Shown piece by piece: positions 6,139 to 22,211 of a DNA stretch of 25,158 nt (position 1 is its first letter; every line of letters starts with the position of its first letter). The stretch spans positions 1 to 25,158 of the forward strand of contig CAYZRF010000025.1 in assembly GCA_964480775.1 (NCBI GenBank), in the 5' to 3' direction. Made by a program: the position numbers and the translations under genes. The DNA comes from an uncultured Nitrososphaerota archaeon (lineage in GTDB: Archaea; Korarchaeota; Korarchaeia; Korarchaeales; Korarchaeaceae). The notes under the pieces were generated by a model, which saw only the letters and a list, made by a program, of their open reading frames with translations, made no database searches and was not told the origin of the DNA.

Positions 6139-6672
6139 TCAACCTATTTTTATTAAATCCTCAATTTTTGACAAGGATTTCTCTATATCTTTCCAGTCCC
6201 ATTCCTCGAACTTCAGATCTCCGAGTTTATTCCTAAGTTCTTCCATGAAGATCCCGCTTTTCTTTGCTTTATTGTACTCTTTAGCCTCATATGGGGGACC
6301 TATCCAGCTTTCTGAAGACCCTGATTCAGTAACCCCACAAGAAGGACTACCTTTTATGCCAATAATCCCGATTATATCATAACCATTTCTAATATATTCT
6401 CTAACAAGATTTTCAATCTCTGAAGCCAGTCTCCTACAATAATTCCTAAATCCAGGATTATCAAATTGTTCTCTTACCCCCCAAAATCTTCTTAAGCCAT
6501 AATAACAAGTTTCGGGGCATGGTAGTTGAACGATGCCTATTCCTTCTCCAATGACAGCTTGTAGCAGCTCTTCAACTGGTCCTCTTCTTCTAGCTAGCCC
6601 CATAACCACAGAATTTTGATTTAACAAACAATGAGCGAGGAAAATGATCTTTTTAGATCTAAGATCTTTCAT
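6139..6672 (-). CDS. DUF523/TudS-related putative [4Fe-4S] desulfidase-like protein
   Basis: Three conserved-looking Cys contexts, IFLAHCLLNQNS, VQLPCPETCYYG and KGSPSCGV, match the layout of TudS-related proteins as I recall it. Confidence 0.55.
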   Translation of the reverse strand: MKDLRSKKIIFLAHCLLNQNSVVMGLARRRGPVEELLQAVIGEGIGIVQLPCPETCYYGLRRFWGVREQFDNPGFRNYCRRLASEIENLVREYIRNGYDIIGIIGIKGSPSCGVTESGSSESWIGPPYEAKEYNKAKKSGIFMEELRNKLGDLKFEEWDWKDIEKSLSKIEDLIKIG

Positions 6673-6726
6673 TGGAACTCAGAACTCACATACTTGTATA
6701 GAATAAAGCCATATCGCATGGACTCT

Positions 6727-6734
6727 TTTATAAA
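6727..6734 (+). promoter_or_regulatory. TATA box (TTTATAAA) for the dolichol-kinase-like gene
   Basis: A consensus archaeal TATA followed by GG, ending 34 nt upstream of the ATG at 6768. This favours 6768 over the TTG at 6750 as the start. Confidence 0.4.
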
Positions 6735-6767
6735 GGAAAACATGATGTTTTGATTTTGAAGGAAAGA

Positions 6768-7457
6768 ATGCTAACGTATGGCGATGTTCTAAGGAAGGTA
6801 GTACACTTTTTGCTGATCGTTGCTTTAGCAATGCCACTATATTGGAGGGAGATTGTAGAAACAATCTTTCAAAAACCATACCCACCGGAAATAAGGGCTT
6901 TTGCAGATCCCGAGGTAATATATGCAACAGTAGTTATAGGTGCAGCATTCTTCAATGCATTCAGGATAAGAAGTCCCATTCCAAGGGAAAAGCTCCTCGA
7001 ATTCAGAAAAAAGGCTGCTGAGATCGGACCCTTTGGGAAAAAAATAGAAGAACTCTTGGAAACAATGGACTCTCTTATCAACACAATGCAGCGAGAGTAT
7101 GAAAAGAGAGCGGGCTATTTAGGCTTAGTTTATGGCACCATTGGAGTTTTTACTGCATACACCTTGTTTGGATACGAGGTTGTATACGGCATAGCCGCGA
7201 TGGCCACGACGGATATTTTTTCTTCTTTGGTGGGAATGGCTTTCGGTAAAAGGAAGATTCCTTTCTCCAACGGCACACTAGAAGGCATGGTCGCTGGCTT
7301 TTTCTCGTTCTTCCTCCCCCTCCTTTTGGTTGAGCCCATGTGGCGAGCATTAATAATAGCTTTGTCCGCTTCTTTTGCTGAAATTTATGGAGTCGAGGAT
7401 AATCTTTCAATTCCTGTTTTCGTATCCTTCGTATCTTGGCTTCTAAGGAATTTTTAG
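6768..7457 (+). CDS. Dolichol kinase / phosphatidate cytidylyltransferase-family membrane protein (COG0170-like)
   Basis: Multi-TM protein with SSLVGMAFGKRKIPFSNGTLEGMVAGFF and SFAEIYGVEDNLSIP, the C-terminal signature region of the CTP-dependent polyprenol kinase / CdsA family. The track ORF starts at a TTG at 6750. Confidence 0.6.
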   Translation: MLTYGDVLRKVVHFLLIVALAMPLYWREIVETIFQKPYPPEIRAFADPEVIYATVVIGAAFFNAFRIRSPIPREKLLEFRKKAAEIGPFGKKIEELLETMDSLINTMQREYEKRAGYLGLVYGTIGVFTAYTLFGYEVVYGIAAMATTDIFSSLVGMAFGKRKIPFSNGTLEGMVAGFFSFFLPLLLVEPMWRALIIALSASFAEIYGVEDNLSIPVFVSFVSWLLRNF

Positions 7458-7486
7458 GATCAGAAATTGAACTTCGCTAATCAATA

Positions 7487-7495
7487 TTTCTTTTT
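7487..7495 (+). terminator. Oligo-T tract (TTTCTTTTT) downstream of the dolichol-kinase-like gene
   Basis: T-rich run 30 nt after the stop. A second T6 run lies at 7521..7526. Confidence 0.3.
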
Positions 7496-7560
7496 GATGT
7501 AACTGCCTACGTCAGACTTATTTTTTATTGAAGCGCGCTTAATGATTAGTAGGTGTACGT

Positions 7561-8760
7561 TTGAGAACTCCACCACATTTATTAATAAGAGGTCGTCGGG
7601 CAGAGCCCGAATTTGAATTAGCTACCTCTCTGGCATATGTTGCTTCTAAAAGAAAAAAATCAGGCTTCATAAGGAAAAGACCCGCTGAACAACTGGATTT
7701 TCTCATTAAAGTGTATTGGCCAATTAGAACCTTGACGTTTTACGGTAGAACCTATCTGTTTGATCCTTTAGGCTTATTTAGCATGACACTAGAGGTAGAA
7801 CCATTGGAAAAAATAAGAGAAGTAATGCAACAAATTTCTGGACCCACATTCTCGCTAGAAGAATTTATGATAAAACTAGAAAAAGCTGAACAGCAGATTC
7901 CAGAACCAGAGTTACTATCCAAGATAGAGGGGCTTGTTCCTGCATCAATGGCTAAGGATATCTACAGAGAGCTTATTGAGGACGAAAATATACCTGGTAT
8001 CAAACTGGAAGATAGAATGAGTGAGAGAGAGTTCTCAGAAGAACTTAGAGAAGCCATCAGACTGGTGGATCAACTAAAATGGGAGATCAATGAAATTGAA
8101 GGATATGTGAACTCGTTAACAAAGCTAAGAGATTCCTGGGAGAAGGAATTAAAGGAAAGGGAGGATGAGATTAGAAGAATCTACGAAACAAGAGTTGAGG
8201 ATGCCAAGCGTTACTTGGGTTCGAAGGCCGAAAAAGAGGTGGAAAAGCTCATGGTAGAAATGGAAAATGAATTAGGAAAGTTAAAAAAATCCATTGAAGA
8301 TCCGTTAAAAGTGCTAAAATCCCTAATAGAAAGGCTTGAAGCCGCCAAAAATAGGCGGGCTTTGTTCGTAAGGTCGTTAGAAGAAAATACTCCCAAGGGT
8401 CCCAATTTAGAGATACCGTTTATGGTAGCTTCTCTCTCAGGAAAAGCTGGAAGGAGATTTCTGGTAATTCCTCCTTCGAATCTATCAAGAGTAGGCATCG
8501 GAGGAAAGATTAAGAAAGCATTTGGAGCCATTGTAGTTCCTATAGAAACTAGGTCTTTGCTTTACGATAGAATGGCTGATCTATTAGAGAAAGAACTGCT
8601 CAATAACTTACAACTCTCTGCTTACGTTACAGAAAGAGGACAGGAAGCAAACCTCATCAAAAAGTACTCGGACTTGATCATGAGAGGCATTACTAGGCTA
8701 AGAGACATGGAGATCCTTGATGAAGACGATGCCACAGAAGTTATGTCAATGGTTCTCTAG
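7561..8760 (+). CDS. Hypothetical protein with a globular N-domain, a central coiled coil and a globular C-domain
   Basis: 399-aa ORF starting at TTG. Composition is coding-like throughout. The central region (about residues 150-270) is strongly E/K/R/L-rich with heptad-like spacing. I recognised no family. Confidence 0.6.
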   Translation: MRTPPHLLIRGRRAEPEFELATSLAYVASKRKKSGFIRKRPAEQLDFLIKVYWPIRTLTFYGRTYLFDPLGLFSMTLEVEPLEKIREVMQQISGPTFSLEEFMIKLEKAEQQIPEPELLSKIEGLVPASMAKDIYRELIEDENIPGIKLEDRMSEREFSEELREAIRLVDQLKWEINEIEGYVNSLTKLRDSWEKELKEREDEIRRIYETRVEDAKRYLGSKAEKEVEKLMVEMENELGKLKKSIEDPLKVLKSLIERLEAAKNRRALFVRSLEENTPKGPNLEIPFMVASLSGKAGRRFLVIPPSNLSRVGIGGKIKKAFGAIVVPIETRSLLYDRMADLLEKELLNNLQLSAYVTERGQEANLIKKYSDLIMRGITRLRDMEILDEDDATEVMSMVL

Positions 8761-9827: not shown

Positions 9828-10712
9828 ATGGCATCCTCGACTTACCAAATTCTTGAACACTACAAAAAGGGGGAAGTCAGAAGAGAAATAGCATATTTCT
9901 GTCGTAAGAGGTGGGTTGCCCTATTTGGAAAGAGAGTAGTTAGATATGACGAAAAAGGTGCCCCTCTATGCATCGAAAGACCTAATCAAGTCATTGAATT
10001 ATTGAAACGTTTTTCCTTAATGGAGCCTAGATCCATTCATGCCACATCGGCCACGTTCCTTAATCTCTCCCAAAGAGAAGATGTGGAGTCTGAAACAAAT
10101 GTTATTTCATACACTCCTTATTGGGATATAGATAACGATCGAACGAAGTGGAAAGCAACTGTTGAAATAGCGCAAGGTATCTTGGACAGCTTGGAGAGGG
10201 AAGGAATAAGCAACTCCGTGTATGTGATGTGGACGGGCAGGGGGATGCATGTTAATTTAAATCAAGGATCGATTTCCCCAGAAATTACAAGGAAATACGG
10301 CGCGCTTGATGCTGCTTGGGCTATAGTGGAGTATATCATTGGAAAGATTACTGATAAACTTCAGAACATACGAGAAAGGTACGAAGCTTTCGAGTTAAGA
10401 GTGGATAATGAAATTAAACCCAAGAATTTGTTTTCTGTTCCACTAAGTTTGCATAGGAAGGTAAATTCTGTGGTGATATGCATACGCCCAGATGATTTGA
10501 GTTCTTTCAATCCTTCATGGTCAAATCCTAGCTTTTTCAAGCATAGCACAGATTGGAGAATGTTTTCAATCGGAGAGGCAGATAATCTAGTTAAAAAAGC
10601 CATTAAGATATATGGGGGCTACCCGTACCCCAGAAGAAGGAGCTATCGTAGAAAAGAACCCAAAGTTGAGGATATGATTCGTAAATGGATGAAAAAGAAT
10701 AACTTGTTATGA
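9828..10712 (+). CDS. priS: Compact archaeo-eukaryotic primase (AEP) catalytic-subunit-like protein (PriS-like)
   Basis: AEP motif I as YWDIDND (DxD), motif II as WTGRGMHV (sGxGxH), and motif III as LRVDNEIKPKNLFSVPLSLHRK (D...R/K..P.SLH). The N-terminal REIAYF...PRSIHATSATF resembles the PriS N-terminus. Only 294 aa. Confidence 0.6.
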   Translation: MASSTYQILEHYKKGEVRREIAYFCRKRWVALFGKRVVRYDEKGAPLCIERPNQVIELLKRFSLMEPRSIHATSATFLNLSQREDVESETNVISYTPYWDIDNDRTKWKATVEIAQGILDSLEREGISNSVYVMWTGRGMHVNLNQGSISPEITRKYGALDAAWAIVEYIIGKITDKLQNIRERYEAFELRVDNEIKPKNLFSVPLSLHRKVNSVVICIRPDDLSSFNPSWSNPSFFKHSTDWRMFSIGEADNLVKKAIKIYGGYPYPRRRSYRRKEPKVEDMIRKWMKKNNLL

Positions 10713-14455: not shown

Positions 14456-14587
14456 CGTGATGATACATTCTTCAATTTTAAAAAACACCGAATAAGTTGG
14501 CTTGTCTATAAGGTTAAACAAGAAACAGTAGAATGAACTTCCTTACAGTAGAAACGAATAAAAGCGGTCGGACAGAAATTGTATGAA

Positions 14588-15313
14588 ATGACAAGACGTC
14601 TTTACTATGAAGATCAATATATGAAAGATTTTGAGGCTGTCGTCGTAGACCTCTTGGAATTTCCAGATAACCTTGGACTTGTCTTAGATAAAACTGCATT
14701 TTATCCAGAAGGTGGAGGACAGCCAGCAGACACGGGACTTATAGAGGCGAGGAAATTTAGGTTCAAAGTCGCTTGGGTCAAGGAAGAGGGTAAGGATATT
14801 ATCCATCTTGGGAAAATGGAGGGTAAAATTTCGCCTGGCAGCATTGTAAAAGGCGCAATAGATTGGAACAGAAGATATAGGCTTATGAGAATGCATACAG
14901 CCGCACATCTTCTGGAAACAGCCGTGGAAAGAATTGTGGGTAGTGCAATCGTTTGGGGGAGCGGTATTAATGTGGATGACGCAAGGCTAGATTTTAAGGC
15001 CCGTATTTCATCTGATGAACTTCCGAGAATAGAAGAAGAGATTAACACGCTGGTTGAGATGGATGCTCCAGTTATGGCAAGGTTTGTTGAAAAAGAGGAG
15101 GCAGAGGATATCTTGAGAAAATATGGCTTAGAACTCGGCAAGCAGTATCTCGCCCTAGAGCAATTAAGAATCGTAGAGATTAAGGGAATTAGAGCTGATC
15201 CGTGTGGGGGGACTCATGTCTCTAAAACTAGTGAAATAGGCCAGATAAAACTTCTTGGCAGGAAGAGTAAAGGGGCAGGAATTACTAGAATACGATTTAC
15301 AGTGGTTCCGTAA
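14588..15313 (+). CDS. alaX: AlaX-M-type alanyl-tRNA editing protein
   Basis: MTRRLYYEDQY N-terminus, FYPEGGGQPAD, zinc motifs HTAAHLL (HxxxH) and CGGTHV (CxxxH). The ATG at 14588 lies 9 nt inside the TTG-initiated track ORF. TATA-like AATAAAAG sits about 30 nt upstream. Confidence 0.85.
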   Translation: MTRRLYYEDQYMKDFEAVVVDLLEFPDNLGLVLDKTAFYPEGGGQPADTGLIEARKFRFKVAWVKEEGKDIIHLGKMEGKISPGSIVKGAIDWNRRYRLMRMHTAAHLLETAVERIVGSAIVWGSGINVDDARLDFKARISSDELPRIEEEINTLVEMDAPVMARFVEKEEAEDILRKYGLELGKQYLALEQLRIVEIKGIRADPCGGTHVSKTSEIGQIKLLGRKSKGAGITRIRFTVVP

Positions 15314-17527: not shown

Positions 17528-18451
17528 TTAAGGTTCATCAAAAGGATCCTCTTTCATCTTAAAGAATAGCCAATAGTTTTCCCTTCCCTTCCAACCTGTT
17601 CTAATGAGAGCATATTTCCCTTTGAGTTTGATCCCGTTTATCTCAAATATGATTTTGTTCTCACTTACTTCCAGAGGCCTATACGTCCCCCTATCCCATA
17701 TTTTCACGAGTCCAGCCCCATACTGGCCCTTAGGAATTGAGTTTGATACTAAGATTGATCCTGCAAAATAATTTTGATTTTGTTTAACCTCTATGTCATA
17801 TCTCTGAATATTTTCGGTTTGTACCCTCCCAGTGTATTCAACTTTTGCCATTGAAATTTTATGTCCTACTACATCCTCTAATCTCGGTTTTATTAGTACA
17901 TAGTCTCCTTTCCTAAGTTCTCTGGCCTTTTTCTTTCCAAAGGGAGTGTAGATAACATGATTTTGAGTTAAAATAATCTTTTTAGATGAAGAGTCACCCG
18001 AAATTGAAAGCTCCATGAAGTCGCTTGATACACCGTTTTTGAACCATCCTATAACTGGTTTCCACTCGATTTTTTCTTCTATCGTGTTATAAGAGAGGAC
18101 ATTTACTTTCAACCTGTTTTCTACGATTTCTCCTATGCTTAGTGGACCATTATCTGTGAGGATTATGGTCCCATACTCCAGGCATCCCTCAAAATAGGCA
18201 TATTCCAAAGGATGGTCCTCCATTTGAATTGCTAGCCTTTTTATTCCGGGCTCAACTGAGGGCTCCTTTGGAATAGCCCAACTTCTTAAGACTCCTCCCA
18301 TCTCTAACCTGAGATCATAGTGAAGCCTTCTTGCATGATGTTCTTGAATTACGTAGACTAGATCCTTCTCTTTTACTTTACTCTGCTCTGATCCAATAGG
18401 TTCTGGAGATTTTGAAAAGTCTCTCTTATCTCTATAATCTCTAAGGGACAA
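17528..18451 (-). CDS. Stand-alone LigD-type DNA 3'-phosphoesterase (PE domain) interrupted by a mini-intein
   Basis: YRDKRDFSKSPEP, VIQEHHARRLHYDLRLE, SWAIPKEPS and EDHPLEYAYFEG, followed after the insert by SIPKGQYGAGLVKIWDRGTY...KGKYALIR...WLFFK. This is the complete LigD PE signature. TTG start at 18451. Confidence 0.85.
   Translation of the reverse strand: MSLRDYRDKRDFSKSPEPIGSEQSKVKEKDLVYVIQEHHARRLHYDLRLEMGGVLRSWAIPKEPSVEPGIKRLAIQMEDHPLEYAYFEGCLEYGTIILTDNGPLSIGEIVENRLKVNVLSYNTIEEKIEWKPVIGWFKNGVSSDFMELSISGDSSSKKIILTQNHVIYTPFGKKKARELRKGDYVLIKPRLEDVVGHKISMAKVEYTGRVQTENIQRYDIEVKQNQNYFAGSILVSNSIPKGQYGAGLVKIWDRGTYRPLEVSENKIIFEINGIKLKGKYALIRTGWKGRENYWLFFKMKEDPFDEP
17741..18184 (-). mobile_element. 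Class-1 mini-intein (148 aa, no homing-endonuclease domain) inside the phosphoesterase gene
   Basis: Residues 90-237 of the ORF. Cys1 (TGC at 18182..18184) heads block A (CLEYGTIILTDNGPLSIGEIV). Block B TQNH lies at 17957..17968. Blocks F/G read RYDIEVKQNQNYFAGSILVSN, with the terminal Asn at 17741..17743 and the +1 Ser at 17738..17740. Confidence 0.8.
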
Positions 18452-18460
18452 TCCTAAGAT

Positions 18461-18490
18461 TATTTCTCTAATATATGTACGTAAAAAATT
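18461..18490. promoter_or_regulatory. AT-rich divergent promoter region between the phosphoesterase and the second AlaX gene
   Basis: TATTTCTCTAATATATGTACGTAAAAAATT contains TATA-like elements on both strands, at suitable distances from the TTG at 18451 (minus) and the ATG at 18517 (plus). Confidence 0.3.
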
Positions 18491-18516
18491 GTAGCATCTT
18501 TTGGCATAACCCTTTT

Positions 18517-19305
18517 ATGATCTGGTTAATAGCCTTTTTTGAGTTGGATATAAATAAGCTGGTTATCGGCGTTTCCCCTACCAATAAGCTGTACCTTGAT
18601 GACCCTTACCTGAGGGCGTCAAAAGCTAGGGTGCTGATTTCAAAACGAGAGAAGAAGAATGCCTACATTGTACTTGATAGGAGCATATATCATCCCAAAG
18701 GAGGAGGGCAGCCCACAGATTTAGGCTATTTTAAAGGAGATGACTTTAATATAAGCCTAAAAAAGGTGATGGAAGTCAAAGGAGTTCTTGTTCACTTTGG
18801 AAAGCTAGATGGTAGGTTGCCGCTGCCTGGCGAGGAAATCGATTGTGTGTTGGACTGGGAGAGGCGTTATCTAACAATGAGATTGCACACGGCAGGGCAT
18901 GTTCTCGATTATGCTCTGAAAGAGGTTTATGGTAAAGTTGTAAATACTCTAGGAGCTCTCCATGGACCGCCAGTCGCATTTACAGAGTACAAAGGTGAAC
19001 TTCCAAACACTAAGCAGATTGAAGTGATCCAAAAGAGAGCAAACGAGATAGTCGAAGATAAAAGAGAGGTTAAGTTCGTTTATGTAACCGCAGATGAATT
19101 ATTGACATCTGTAAAAGATGCGCCAAACATAGATAGACTGCCTAAAGCTGAGAGATACAGGCTTGTGGTTATAGAAGGAGTAAATGCAATTCCTTGTATG
19201 GGGACTCACGTAAAGAACACGATTGAAATAGGCCCGATTGATGTTAGGAAGGTCGAAGAAACTGAAAAGGGGTTCAAGCTGTACTACGCCGTTAAAGAAT
19301 TCTAA
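18517..19305 (+). CDS. Second AlaX-like aminoacyl-tRNA editing protein (Ala/Thr-tRNA synthetase second additional domain family)
   Basis: TNKLYLDDPYL, YHPKGGGQPTD, HTAGHVLD (HxxxH) and CMGTHV (CxxxH). The start is uncertain: ATG 18475 (adds a non-AlaX hydrophobic leader), ATG 18517, or TTG 18544. Confidence 0.8.
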   Translation: MIWLIAFFELDINKLVIGVSPTNKLYLDDPYLRASKARVLISKREKKNAYIVLDRSIYHPKGGGQPTDLGYFKGDDFNISLKKVMEVKGVLVHFGKLDGRLPLPGEEIDCVLDWERRYLTMRLHTAGHVLDYALKEVYGKVVNTLGALHGPPVAFTEYKGELPNTKQIEVIQKRANEIVEDKREVKFVYVTADELLTSVKDAPNIDRLPKAERYRLVVIEGVNAIPCMGTHVKNTIEIGPIDVRKVEETEKGFKLYYAVKEF

Positions 19306-19352: not shown

Positions 19353-20540
19353 ATGTCTAGGGTAAAACCTGATGAGTCGAGAAAAAAGAACGAATATGAA
19401 AGGATAAGAATTTATTTAGATGCTTATATGGACGAAGCTTTCTCCTCGAGTCTTTATGCGAAGCTTTCAAAAATAACAGAAGGAGAACTCTCGAAAAGAC
19501 TTGATGAGTTGGCTGAGATAGAGACCTCCCATGCAAGATTTTGGAAAGAAATCCTGGAAGAACAGGGATTTAAAGCGGGAGACATAAGAATCTCAAGAAT
19601 CAAATTAATTCTCTTCGTATTAGGGGCAAGGATCTTAGGAACTCCGCTTATAATCAAACTTCTTGAGGCTGGAGAAGTTGCCGCTATCTCACTGTACTCT
19701 AAGATACTGAAGGAAGGATTGCTCTCAGAAGATAAAAGTGTCATTCTAAGATCTGTTCTAGAGGATGAGCTGTTGCATGAGTCATTATTTCGAAAAGAAG
19801 AAGAAAAGTTCAAAGGATTTCTTAACCATGTAAGAGATGCTGTTTTGGGAATGAGCGATGGTTTAGTTGAGGTTCTCTCAGTCACAGCTGGTCTCGCTGG
19901 AGCATATGGAGATCCTTTACACACAGCCCTTGGAGGTTTGATCGTTGGTTTCGGAGGGGCTACCTCCATGGCAATTGGATCGTATGTTTCGATAAAGTCT
20001 CAGAAGGAAGTTAAGGAAGGGCAGATTGAGAAAATACGAATGGAATCCATGGTAGCAAAAGAACATAGGCTTAGAAGGATAAGCGAGATTCTAGCAAGAA
20101 GGGGGCTTAGATCCAGAACTCTAAGCCTTTTACTAAAGGATCTTAGCGAAAATGAGGATGCTCTTGCCGAGATATCTCTTAGAGAAGATCTTGGGCTTAG
20201 TGAAGAGGTCTTAGAGGATCCAAAGAGGTCAGCAGCTTACACTGGTGTTTTCTATATTATTGGGGCTCTAGTTCCGACGATCCCTTATTTGTTTATAAGA
20301 GACATGAATATAGGCCTCTTTACGTCCCTATTCCTTACAGCATTAATGCTAGGAACCACTGGAGTTATAATTGGAATCTCTGCTGGTTTAAGTCCTTTGA
20401 AAAAGGCTTTTGAAATGATCTTTTCTGGATTAAGCGCGGCAGCCATAACTTTCGGGGTCGGAAGATTTGCTTCATCACTTCTTGGCGTGGAACTAGGAAA
20501 AAATCTATCAAAAAGTCGTAAATTTCCTAAAGTTAAGTGA
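19353..20540 (+). CDS. Ferritin-like (rubrerythrin-type) domain fused to a VIT1/CCC1-family iron/manganese transporter
   Basis: The N-terminal part reads YMDEAFSSSLYAKL...EIETSHARFWKEIL...EDELLHESLF, consistent with a diiron four-helix bundle. The C-terminal part reads AVLGMSDGLVEVLSVTAGLAGA followed by TM helices typical of VIT1. Confidence 0.8.
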   Translation: MSRVKPDESRKKNEYERIRIYLDAYMDEAFSSSLYAKLSKITEGELSKRLDELAEIETSHARFWKEILEEQGFKAGDIRISRIKLILFVLGARILGTPLIIKLLEAGEVAAISLYSKILKEGLLSEDKSVILRSVLEDELLHESLFRKEEEKFKGFLNHVRDAVLGMSDGLVEVLSVTAGLAGAYGDPLHTALGGLIVGFGGATSMAIGSYVSIKSQKEVKEGQIEKIRMESMVAKEHRLRRISEILARRGLRSRTLSLLLKDLSENEDALAEISLREDLGLSEEVLEDPKRSAAYTGVFYIIGALVPTIPYLFIRDMNIGLFTSLFLTALMLGTTGVIIGISAGLSPLKKAFEMIFSGLSAAAITFGVGRFASSLLGVELGKNLSKSRKFPKVK

Positions 20541-20594: not shown

Positions 20595-22211
20595 GTGAAA
20601 ATAAGCAAAGTAGATTTTCTTTCTCTATCTTTGATCGTTGTTGTCCTAGTTCTCCTAATGGAGAGATTCAAGGTATTTCCCCTTTTTGTTGACATCTATT
20701 ACCATCTAAGCGTTGTGAGAGGATTTGATTTGGCTGGAGGGATTGTTCTAAAAGATTTTTGGGAATTTGCACCGACAGGCAGGACCCATCTCTATCCTCC
20801 TTTGCTTCACATTATTATGCTACTATTACATAAAGGTGGAATGGATTTTCCTGTACTTGGAGCTTTCATTAGCATAGTAATGTTTCCTTTGTCTTTAATT
20901 ACTAGCTGGTTTTCGATGAGAAAGGCCTTTGGAAGCAATGTTGCTTTCTTCTCACTTCTGATGCTAATGAGTCCACTTAGCTATCTAACTAGCCAATCAG
21001 TAGTTAGTGCAGCCACTTTGGTGTTAGTCCTGACGCCTCTTCTTTTCTACTTCTTTGAGAAAGATATGCTACTTGCAGCCATCACAACGATGACTGCTTG
21101 CCTTTACACGCATCTTAGTATGCCTCACGTAACAGCATTGGCTTTTGTGCTTTATGGAATATTCTCAAAGAGAATTGGAAAGGTGATCAAGTTCCTTGCC
21201 CCCTCCTACATTTTGTATCTTCCATGGGCTCTTCACATAGCACTTAACTCCGAGTATCTAGTTACAGGGAGGGTTTTCGGCAGGGATTTGGAGGCTCACA
21301 TGCTGCTTGTGGTATTTGCTCTGCTGGGGGCTGCTGTTTCGATAAAAAAGAGGGGATCCTACCTTTTCCCACTTGCTTACTCCTTTGCAATGATTCCTAT
21401 TGCATTTAAGTACCCTGCCAGATTTTCAGATCATTGTTTGCTCCCTCTATCTATGTTAGCAGGATTAGGCGCAGCTGAGGCTCTAAGATGGCTTAGATCA
21501 AGGAACATACCAAGCTTTGTTCTTCCATCGCTACTTCTCATATTGGTTGTTATCGTGGACCCCATCCTAATGATATCCATCAGAAGCCCTCCTGGGCCCC
21601 TTGGAGGAGGATCTTTACAACGTAAGACCGTTGTGCTTGTACCTCACGAGACTTTCATAACTAGCTTCATCTCTTTGGACCGTGCTATGAGGTCGTCTGA
21701 AAGGATGTTCTTTACAAATTGGATAACGGAGGAAAACATGAAAGTTGCAGAGCTGGTCTTAGAGAATTCTGAGTGGGATGAGATAGTATTCGTCGATAAC
21801 GGACCCTATGGCTGTTTTATCACGTCTTTCACTGGAAGGGCTCAGACAGGAGGGATGTTTCATGAGGTCTCCCCAGAGGAGGTTAGGGCCCCTCCGAAGG
21901 TGGCAAGAGTGATTGTACTAACTGAAACTAAAAAGGGATCGAAGGCCTTGAACCTCTGGGAAAATCCGCCTCCCTTTTTGGTTAGAGTAGCCAAAATAGG
22001 CAAGGTATTGATTCTAAGGAGAGAAGGTTCCAAAACCGCCAGGATTTTGATTCCAAAGCCGATCATTCCCACCAATCTAGCTTTTATCTTGCTATTATCA
22101 ATTCCTTCAGGTATTTTGATAGATATCTTGATTCAACGCAAGAAAGAAGTGGATATGCAGGCTACTTCTTCTCTAGAGTTGCTCGGGAACGACGTGGAAC
22201 ATGTTTCTTGA
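20595..22211 (+). CDS. Polytopic membrane protein, probably a GT-C-fold (ArnT/PMT-like) glycosyltransferase, with a C-terminal soluble domain
   Basis: GTG start. About 10-11 TM helices over the first ~330 aa, with an early loop reading KDFWEFAPTGRTHLYPPLLH. A soluble ~170-aa domain and a final TM helix follow. No WWDYG motif, so this is not AglB. Confidence 0.45.
   Translation: MKISKVDFLSLSLIVVVLVLLMERFKVFPLFVDIYYHLSVVRGFDLAGGIVLKDFWEFAPTGRTHLYPPLLHIIMLLLHKGGMDFPVLGAFISIVMFPLSLITSWFSMRKAFGSNVAFFSLLMLMSPLSYLTSQSVVSAATLVLVLTPLLFYFFEKDMLLAAITTMTACLYTHLSMPHVTALAFVLYGIFSKRIGKVIKFLAPSYILYLPWALHIALNSEYLVTGRVFGRDLEAHMLLVVFALLGAAVSIKKRGSYLFPLAYSFAMIPIAFKYPARFSDHCLLPLSMLAGLGAAEALRWLRSRNIPSFVLPSLLLILVVIVDPILMISIRSPPGPLGGGSLQRKTVVLVPHETFITSFISLDRAMRSSERMFFTNWITEENMKVAELVLENSEWDEIVFVDNGPYGCFITSFTGRAQTGGMFHEVSPEEVRAPPKVARVIVLTETKKGSKALNLWENPPPFLVRVAKIGKVLILRREGSKTARILIPKPIIPTNLAFILLLSIPSGILIDILIQRKKEVDMQATSSLELLGNDVEHVS

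Follow-up and report, generated by a model that had tools for sequence, protein, structure and literature searches.

The question raised by this locus is what lies between the two halves of a LigD-type 3'-phosphoesterase (PE) gene, and whether it is an intein. We analyzed the 25,158 nucleotides of contig CAYZRF010000025.1 (assembly GCA_964480775.1, from an uncultured archaeon), a stretch that we call here, in its whole length, the window. Its minus strand carries an open reading frame (ORF), 17528..18451, that starts with TTG and codes for 307 amino acids (aa). An earlier reading of the bare DNA letters (the original prediction) had proposed that a mini-intein splits this PE. Our answer is that the gene very probably codes for the precursor of a stand-alone PE with a class-1 mini-intein between Gly89 and Ser238, descended from a homing intein. 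Re-translation of the coordinate blocks gave the N-extein (18185..18451), the insert (17741..18184) and the C-extein (17531..17740), the N-extein finishing in ...EDHPLEYAYFEG and the insert being exactly 148 codons long (CLEYGT...SILVSN). The ORF and the insert agreed to the base with what had been predicted, and all the PE and intein motifs quoted at that time (KRDFSKSPEP, QEHHARRLHYDLRLE, SWAIPKEPS, TQNH and YDIEVKQNQNYFAGSILVSN) were found in the ORF. The TTG start is supported by the conserved N-terminal KRDF..PEP motif of the N-extein, and a protein identical to the 307-aa precursor is present in the public collection (P0001). The gene and its extein parts are the following, PaePE being the PE of Pseudomonas aeruginosa LigD:

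17528..18451, minus strand: precursor gene, read as a LigD-type PE split by a mini-intein, 307 aa, stop codon at 17528-17530.
18185..18451, minus strand: N-extein, residues 1-89, ending in ...HPLEYAYFEG; the alignment to PaePE begins at residue 3.
18308..18340, minus strand: HHARRLHYDLR, the metal/phosphate-binding motif of the extein, from the alignment to PaePE.
18200..18214, minus strand: HPLEY extein motif, five residues upstream of the insertion point, from the same alignment.
17531..17740, minus strand: C-extein, residues 238-307, SIPKGQYGAG...WLFFKMKEDPFDEP, from re-translation and the alignment to PaePE.

The profile searches leave the precursor with a PE signature in two parts. LigD_N (Pfam PF13298) matches it in two separate stretches (E=8.7e-37), and the NCBIfam model LigD_PE_dom (TIGR02777) scores 180.8 bits over a cut-off of 144. 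When the insert is removed in silico, the resulting 159-aa protein matches LigD_N in one piece (profile 1-107/107, E=2e-40), the TIGR02777 score reaches up to 195.9 bits over the same cut-off, and the spliced sequence aligns end to end with the solved PE domains 3p43 (E=5e-50) and PaePE (E=9e-48). Alignment with intein-less PEs indicates a clean 148-aa indel placed exactly between FEG and [S/T/V]IP. The P. aeruginosa sequence (...DYADFEGSIPQGHYGAG...) is unbroken across this site, and archaeal PE sequences are likewise contiguous there. The original prediction had counted on these three points, i.e. FEG and SIP being contiguous in P. aeruginosa LigD, a clean indel against intein-less orthologues and a 159-aa PE left after removal of the insert, and all of them held. 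In the AlphaFold2 model (input alignment of 25 sequences, mean pLDDT 83.7) the exteins match the archaeal PE 3p43 across the insertion with a TM-score (TMt) of 0.90, and 3p4h with 0.88 (Foldseek against PDB); by these matches the modeled exteins form the eight-stranded beta-barrel of the PE fold.

The residues essential for both PE activities are His42, His48, Asp50, Arg52, His84 and Tyr88 of PaePE (PMC3300020). In the alignment they correspond to H38, H44, D46, R48, H80 and Y84 of the window protein, so that the catalytic residues of the exteins are intact with respect to PaePE, and their columns are invariant in PE alignments. The insertion point is equivalent to PaePE Gly93|Ser94, which is five residues beyond the catalytic Tyr and within a segment that in PaePE is a short strand, disordered in solution (PMC3300020). 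The original prediction had placed the insert in an active-site motif. Its proximity to the active site stands, but FEG|SIP itself reads as a conserved loop near the active site and not as a documented catalytic motif. As far as can be told from sequence, the window gene is the precursor of a stand-alone LigD-type PE, with a predicted activity as a Mn2+-dependent DNA 3'-end-healing enzyme.

We compared the insert with profiles and structures of known inteins. The Pfam family Intein_splicing (PF14890) covers residues 96-237 (E=3.4e-9), and the NCBIfam models intein_Nterm (TIGR01445, residues 90-169, 37.2 bits, cut-off 24.5) and intein_Cterm (TIGR01443, residues 218-238, 18.5 bits, cut-off 15.6) match its two ends. 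A LAGLIDADG or HNH match was absent from the Pfam search of the precursor. By sequence, the top match among solved inteins was the Spl DnaX mini-intein (E=1.4e-8), and NrdJ-1 and PI-MtuI matched too. Among structures, the top Foldseek match of the modeled insert was the NrdJ-1 intein 8ubs (TMt 0.86, root-mean-square deviation (rmsd) 1.9 A, E=2e-10), the Mtu RecA mini-intein 2in9 gave TMt 0.91 with an rmsd of 1.8 A, and the values for NrdJ-1, Mtu RecA, NpuDnaB and Spl DnaX inteins were all between 0.86 and 0.91. The expectations that the PE match would be split around intein N- and C-terminal profile matches (Pfam, NCBIfam), that the insert would be predicted to have a Hint fold superposing on known mini-inteins, and that it would be a mini-intein with no endonuclease domain detectable by Pfam were borne out. 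Its parts are as follows:

17741..18184, minus strand: probable mini-intein, 148 aa, residues 90-237, class-1 type, Hint fold, without endonuclease domain (profiles, model and re-translation).
18146..18184, minus strand: intein block A, CLEYGTIILTDNG, with Cys1 (residue 90), the putative step-1 nucleophile; C1 is invariant.
17942..17971, minus strand: intein block B, LTQNHVIYTP, with Thr162 and His165 forming TxxH; T73 and H76 are invariant.
17837..17893, minus strand: linker IKPRLEDVVGHKISMAKVE, 19 aa, in the place of the ~200-aa LAGLIDADG endonuclease of relatives.
17741..17803, minus strand: intein blocks F/G, RYDIEVKQNQNYFAGSILVSN, with Asp219, penultimate Ser236 and terminal Asn237; Y129, D130, S147 and N148 are invariant.
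17738..17740, minus strand: +1 Ser238, first residue of the C-extein and putative trans-esterification nucleophile (re-translation).

The presence of Cys1, the block-B Thr and His, the block-F Asp, the terminal Asn and the +1 Ser, together with the absence from the insert of the class-3 WCT signature and a position 1 that is not Ala (class 2), indicate a class-1 intein. Cys90 is the sole Cys of the whole precursor. The linker has the lowest model confidence in the intein (pLDDT 69 at residues 191-200) and is its least conserved part, with 61-68% nucleotide identity to locus L001; we take it as the presumed scar of the endonuclease deletion. A bacterial intein-like (BIL) or a Hedgehog-type Hint domain was considered too, and is ruled out by the +1 nucleophile, the terminal Asn, the intein-specific profiles and the endonuclease-bearing relatives at the same site.

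These relatives came from a search of the protein collection that gave 6545 PE homologues. Among the best 120 of the 6545, only the top ~26 carry the intein and the remainder are intein-less. P0002-P0007 (276-310 aa, labeled as Thermoproteota and Korarchaeota metagenome-assembled genomes, MAGs) have inteins of 145-148 aa. P0008-P0025 (468-530 aa, with the labels Bathyarchaeota BA2, Promethearchaeota, Nanoarchaeia and Nitrososphaerales) have inteins of 347-349 aa that include LAGLIDADG_2 (PF03161), and in the alignment, taking the ~200-aa endonuclease domain out of the long form gives the mini form. All the ~28 PE inteins found share a single insertion site, and the C-terminal junction is LVSN|SIP in 28/28. 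Residues C1, T73, H76, Y129, D130, S147 and N148 are invariant in the 15-sequence intein alignment, and every intein-bearing allele has Ser at +1. The equivalent residue of the intein-less PEs is Thr in 37, Val in 28, Ile in 7 and Ser in only 2, so that Ser is nearly confined to the intein-bearing alleles, as would be expected if it is needed as splicing nucleophile.

This pattern bears on a different explanation, namely that the 148-aa piece is a domesticated Hint insertion that does not splice and stays as a surface-loop domain, the full-length precursor being the active enzyme. The AlphaFold2 model does fold a complete PE barrel around the insert, which appears as a separate domain, and the site is in the loop disordered in solution mentioned above for PaePE. 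However, Cys1, the terminal Asn and the +1 Ser serve splicing only, and yet they are invariant across phyla. Besides, Ser at +1 goes together with the intein, Thr or Val being the usual residue of PEs that lack it, and a homing endonuclease in the same-site relatives is the hallmark of a mobile intein. We consider a domesticated insertion extremely unlikely, the least probable of the explanations discussed here.

To delimit the distribution of the element, we scanned species-representative genomes for PE inteins. They were found in MAGs of Thermoproteota (L001, L003), Bathyarchaeia (L004, L005), Promethearchaeota (L007), Pacearchaeota (L009), and Nitrososphaerota and Nitrososphaeria (L002, L006, L008, L010). 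The sole PE intein under a bacterial label was L011, a 3.3-kb contig binned as Candidatus Saccharibacteria. Since this contig is short and its protein (like P0025) groups with archaeal sequences, mis-binning is as likely as a real bacterial occurrence. Several full-length copies carry one substitution each, which falls on the Asp presumed to be catalytic in the LAGLIDADG motifs (LGNAHL in P0022, WYMDNG in P0016 and L008), which suggests endonucleases inactivated by point mutation beside the intact LGDAHL / WYMDDG forms. A second PE site is occupied in P0129, a protein of 1143 aa whose divergent PE domain is fused to a LigD primase-polymerase domain. Residues 82-460 are a related 379-aa LAGLIDADG intein, also ending in LLVSN|S, with the junction QKHNAKRAG|C...LVSN|SHLDFRL between both metal-binding histidines, and the FSG|RIP site of this protein is empty.

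As for the history of the copy in the window, the eight mini-inteins of its group are monophyletic with 100% bootstrap in neighbor-joining (NJ) trees of the intein and of the extein alike, which indicates that the endonuclease was lost once. The window, L001, L002/L025 and L003 have in common the gene order ZnuA, ABC ATPase, ABC-3 permease, AlaX-like, PE, MscS, AIM24, AlaX-like and UPP synthase (UPPS). The GC content is about 0.35-0.38 in the intein and about 0.39-0.46 in the exteins, with no sharp contrast across the gene; a signal of foreign origin was looked for, and this smooth base composition gives no hint of recent acquisition. An origin from an endonuclease-bearing intein is supported by the comparative data. 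The ancestor would have been a homing intein of 349 aa whose LAGLIDADG endonuclease had two motifs; inteins of this kind occupy the same PE site in several archaeal phyla. The endonuclease domain would have been deleted once, in the ancestor of the clade of the window, and afterwards host gene and mini-intein would have been passed on together, within a conserved gene neighborhood. Splicing competence would have been kept by selection, because a non-splicing copy would inactivate the PE. P0126 is a 303-aa PE with a 155-aa mini-intein at the same FEG|SIP site. Its extein is nearest to that of P0018 (75%), which has a full-length intein, and its intein is 35-39% identical to those of the clade of the window; it represents a second, independent natural endonuclease loss.

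The action of selection can be estimated from the substitutions. The non-synonymous rate of the intein is two to three times that of the exteins, and the ratio of non-synonymous to synonymous changes (dN/dS), taken against three relatives, lies near 0.1-0.2 in the intein and near 0.05 in the exteins; these values are rough because dS is near or at saturation in most pairs. These numbers concern the possibility of a dead intein, i.e. that this copy does not splice and that the PE gene is an inactivated, decaying pseudogene. The histidines missing near the end of the insert could be read in that sense, and so could block B (17957..17968), which is TQNH in the window and T[P/S/A]NH or similar in other family members, including TPNH in P0121, a cluster mate more than 90% identical. 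A truncated allele that looks decayed does exist in P0026 (Odinarchaeia MAG, 207 aa), in which the N-extein and the N-terminal splicing half are followed by unrelated sequence and a stop; a frameshift or an assembly error would account for it as well. In the window, however, the ORF is intact, the nucleophiles, the block-B Thr and His and the extein catalytic residues are kept, and dN/dS is well under 1 for intein and extein. Neither of the two x positions of TxxH is catalytic, and TQNH is a recent Pro-to-Gln change at one of them. A dead copy is thus very unlikely, though less so than a domesticated insertion.

If the insert is a functional mini-intein, the standard class-1 intein chemistry (PMC4031507) provides the steps. 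Cys90 would carry out an N-to-S acyl shift at the Gly89-Cys90 bond, aided by Thr162 and His165 of block B, and the hydroxyl of Ser238 would then attack the thioester (trans-esterification) to give a branched ester. Asn237 would cyclise to a succinimide, freeing the 148-aa intein, and an O-to-N shift would leave a Gly89-Ser peptide bond. The product would be the 159-aa PE with an unbroken ...YAYFEGSIPKGQYGAG... loop, as in the characterized PEs.

Several points weigh against a mini-intein that works in this way. The PF14890 match is only narrowly above the gathering score (37.1 vs 35.8 bits), the trees are NJ on 116-148 columns and not maximum likelihood, and the saturation of dS makes the dN/dS values rough. 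Autocatalytic splicing, chemistry included, is something that we infer from residue conservation and purifying selection. Most of all, the penultimate His (G:6) is replaced by Ser236, and the window has Gln at the block-F position where Spl DnaX (NHNF) has His. Both histidines are residues that assist Asn cyclisation (PMC4031507), and with the two usual assistants missing the reaction could be slow or conditional. The penultimate Ser had been pointed out in the original prediction; it is there, and it is invariant in the ~28 same-site inteins. It is also present in related viral inteins, and this distribution across phyla and in viruses indicates a trait of the subfamily, one that long-term persistence allows, and not the mark of a broken copy. 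Two viral ORFs of 949 and 1088 aa (L027 and L028, IMG/VR) have inteins 38-43% identical to that of the window with the ends LISN|S and LLVSN|S, so the trait reaches beyond PE hosts. A penultimate His is common in class-1 inteins and not obligatory. Actually, inteins without it have been reported to splice (Chen, Benner & Perler 2000; Ssp DnaE structure paper; cited in PMC4031507).

The same residues could have a different meaning. With Ser at G:6, and with Gln or Asn in place of the block-F His, Asn cyclisation could be rate-limiting, and the intein would gate the end-healing activity, with high temperature, metal or DNA substrate as triggers. The Ser is invariant in the family and the block-F position is variable (some mini relatives have His there, and most long ones Asn), both being assisting positions as cited above, and a mini-intein without endonuclease has persisted through 63-72% intein identity under purifying selection. 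But the cost of an imprecise deletion accounts fully for this persistence, inteins that splice without the penultimate His are known as just described, and with one Cys only in the precursor a disulfide redox trap is impossible. Positive or regulatory evidence for slow or conditional splicing was not found, and we regard it as unlikely, although more plausible than a dead copy. In the broader form, that a subfamily defined by an invariant penultimate Ser and no fixed block-F His uses a non-canonical Asn cyclisation, making PE splicing rate-limited or conditional and hence a post-translational switch, the idea is doubtful too, if slightly less so. An ordinary class-1 mini-intein that removes itself from the PE is the reading that we favor.

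The surroundings of the gene were also analyzed. Ku, an ATP-dependent ligase and a primase-polymerase were found neither among the ORFs of the 25-kb window nor in the syntenic 21-kb locus L025, and a complete non-homologous end joining system (Ku, ligase, polymerase and PE) at this locus is rejected by the absence of the partner genes from both. Between ~17500 and 19800, the block formed by the PE and an AlaX-like gene (18475..19305) has 79% protein identity to L001 (Thermoproteota B15_G15), vs 92-99% for the flanking genes. At the nucleotide level the identity to L001 is about 72-85% within the AlaX-PE block vs 90-97% outside, and for these two genes L001 is about equally distant from the window and from L002. 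It looks like the AlaX-PE segment, mini-intein included, was replaced by a recombination tract in the lineage of the window or in that of L001. The AlaX-like gene has a paralogue 3 kb away (14579..15313, also on the plus strand); both have the tRNA_SAD / alanyl-tRNA-synthetase editing domain, are about 32% identical and are conserved in the syntenic relatives. A 538-aa ORF at 20595..22211 (plus strand) with no Pfam match lacks a counterpart at the syntenic position of L001, L002/L025 and L003, indicating an insertion or deletion relative to these close relatives. L002 lacks the VIT/rubrerythrin gene that adjoins it (19353..20540), and L003 has this gene in fragmentary form. Four ORFs of 177-399 aa at 6139..8760 and 9828..10712 have no Pfam match at E<=0.001.

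The original prediction knew of no intein allele described in the LigD phosphoesterase family. In this it was right as far as our literature search for an intein in LigD or its phosphoesterase goes, which found no describing paper, and the main text of the 2016 survey of prokaryotic inteins (PMC4760082), the part consulted, makes no mention of one in the LigD PE. The allele is not unique, however, but belongs to a family spread over several archaeal phyla, mostly with LAGLIDADG. Pre-computed Pfam annotations already pair PF13298 with PF14890 on intein-bearing PE proteins, so the feature is visible to automated pipelines and apparently undescribed. The LigD PE is apparently a new host family and a new insertion site for a well-understood element, and the LigD-type 3'-phosphoesterase joins the DNA-repair proteins that host inteins. 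Inteins are known to favor enzymes of replication and repair, as well as conserved positions close to active centers, and they are expected in DNA-repair proteins and in Archaea; the host found here fits these tendencies. The finding leaves the current picture of intein and PE mechanisms as it was. The comparative set is a small natural record: at least four archaeal phyla have the full-length homing intein, the endonuclease has been lost independently at least twice, and one mini-intein has become fixed and is passed down vertically. If correct, it would be a natural series for the homing cycle at an undescribed site, comprising intact and point-inactivated endonucleases, two deletions, a truncated allele and a second PE site. 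If the cyclisation were indeed non-canonical, it could mean that hydrothermal archaea have a switch acting on an enzyme that heals DNA ends. The element might also serve as a protein-engineering tool, being of 148 aa with a single Cys, Gly at -1, Ser at +1 and no penultimate His, and coming from a probable hydrothermal-sediment archaeon.

Outside the PE family, the nearest relatives in species-representative genomes are bacterial RecA inteins, with 34-43% identity over the N-terminal splicing domain. Their junction (L012-L024) is ...GVMFG|C...VHN|SPETTTGG, and a loose F-(x)-G|S-(x)-P-E pattern is common to the RecA and PE target sites (FEG|SIPEG in PE), which could hint at an ectopic intein transfer between the two repair genes. 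The scan of viral contigs gave only more distant inteins (<=43% identity) in other host genes, with a PE-type junction in 0/80 loci, and offers no support for a viral vector of the PE intein.

Compared with the known systems, the predicted spliced product shares the essential residues and the FEG-x-IP loop of the stand-alone archaeal PEs (3p43, 3p4h, 5dmp) and PaePE (3n9b, 2lj6). None of the characterized PEs carries an intein, whereas the window gene would need protein splicing to reach that form. Regarding the insert, the Spl DnaX mini-intein (7cfv) and NrdJ-1 (8ubs) are similar in size (about 137-150 aa), Hint fold and lack of endonuclease, but their hosts are DnaX and ribonucleotide reductase, of bacterial or metagenomic origin, and they have the canonical HN C-terminus. 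Ssp DnaE-type inteins lack the His at G:6 as the window does; in the window its place is taken by an invariant Ser, and His is missing from the block-F position too. The closest structural matches are the Mtu RecA intein (PI-MtuI) and its mini-intein (2in9, 2imz, 3ifj), with TMt 0.89-0.91, an rmsd of about 2 A and a sequence match of E=5e-7. Like the insert, they are class-1 inteins with Cys1, TxxH, the block-F Asp and the terminal Asn; a LAGLIDADG endonuclease is present in the full-length relatives of the insert too, and the host is likewise a DNA repair/recombination protein. Host and site are different, and Mtu RecA has Cys at +1 and a penultimate His where the window has Ser in both positions. 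The Mtu RecA mini-intein was engineered, whereas the mini form found in the window would have arisen by natural deletion.

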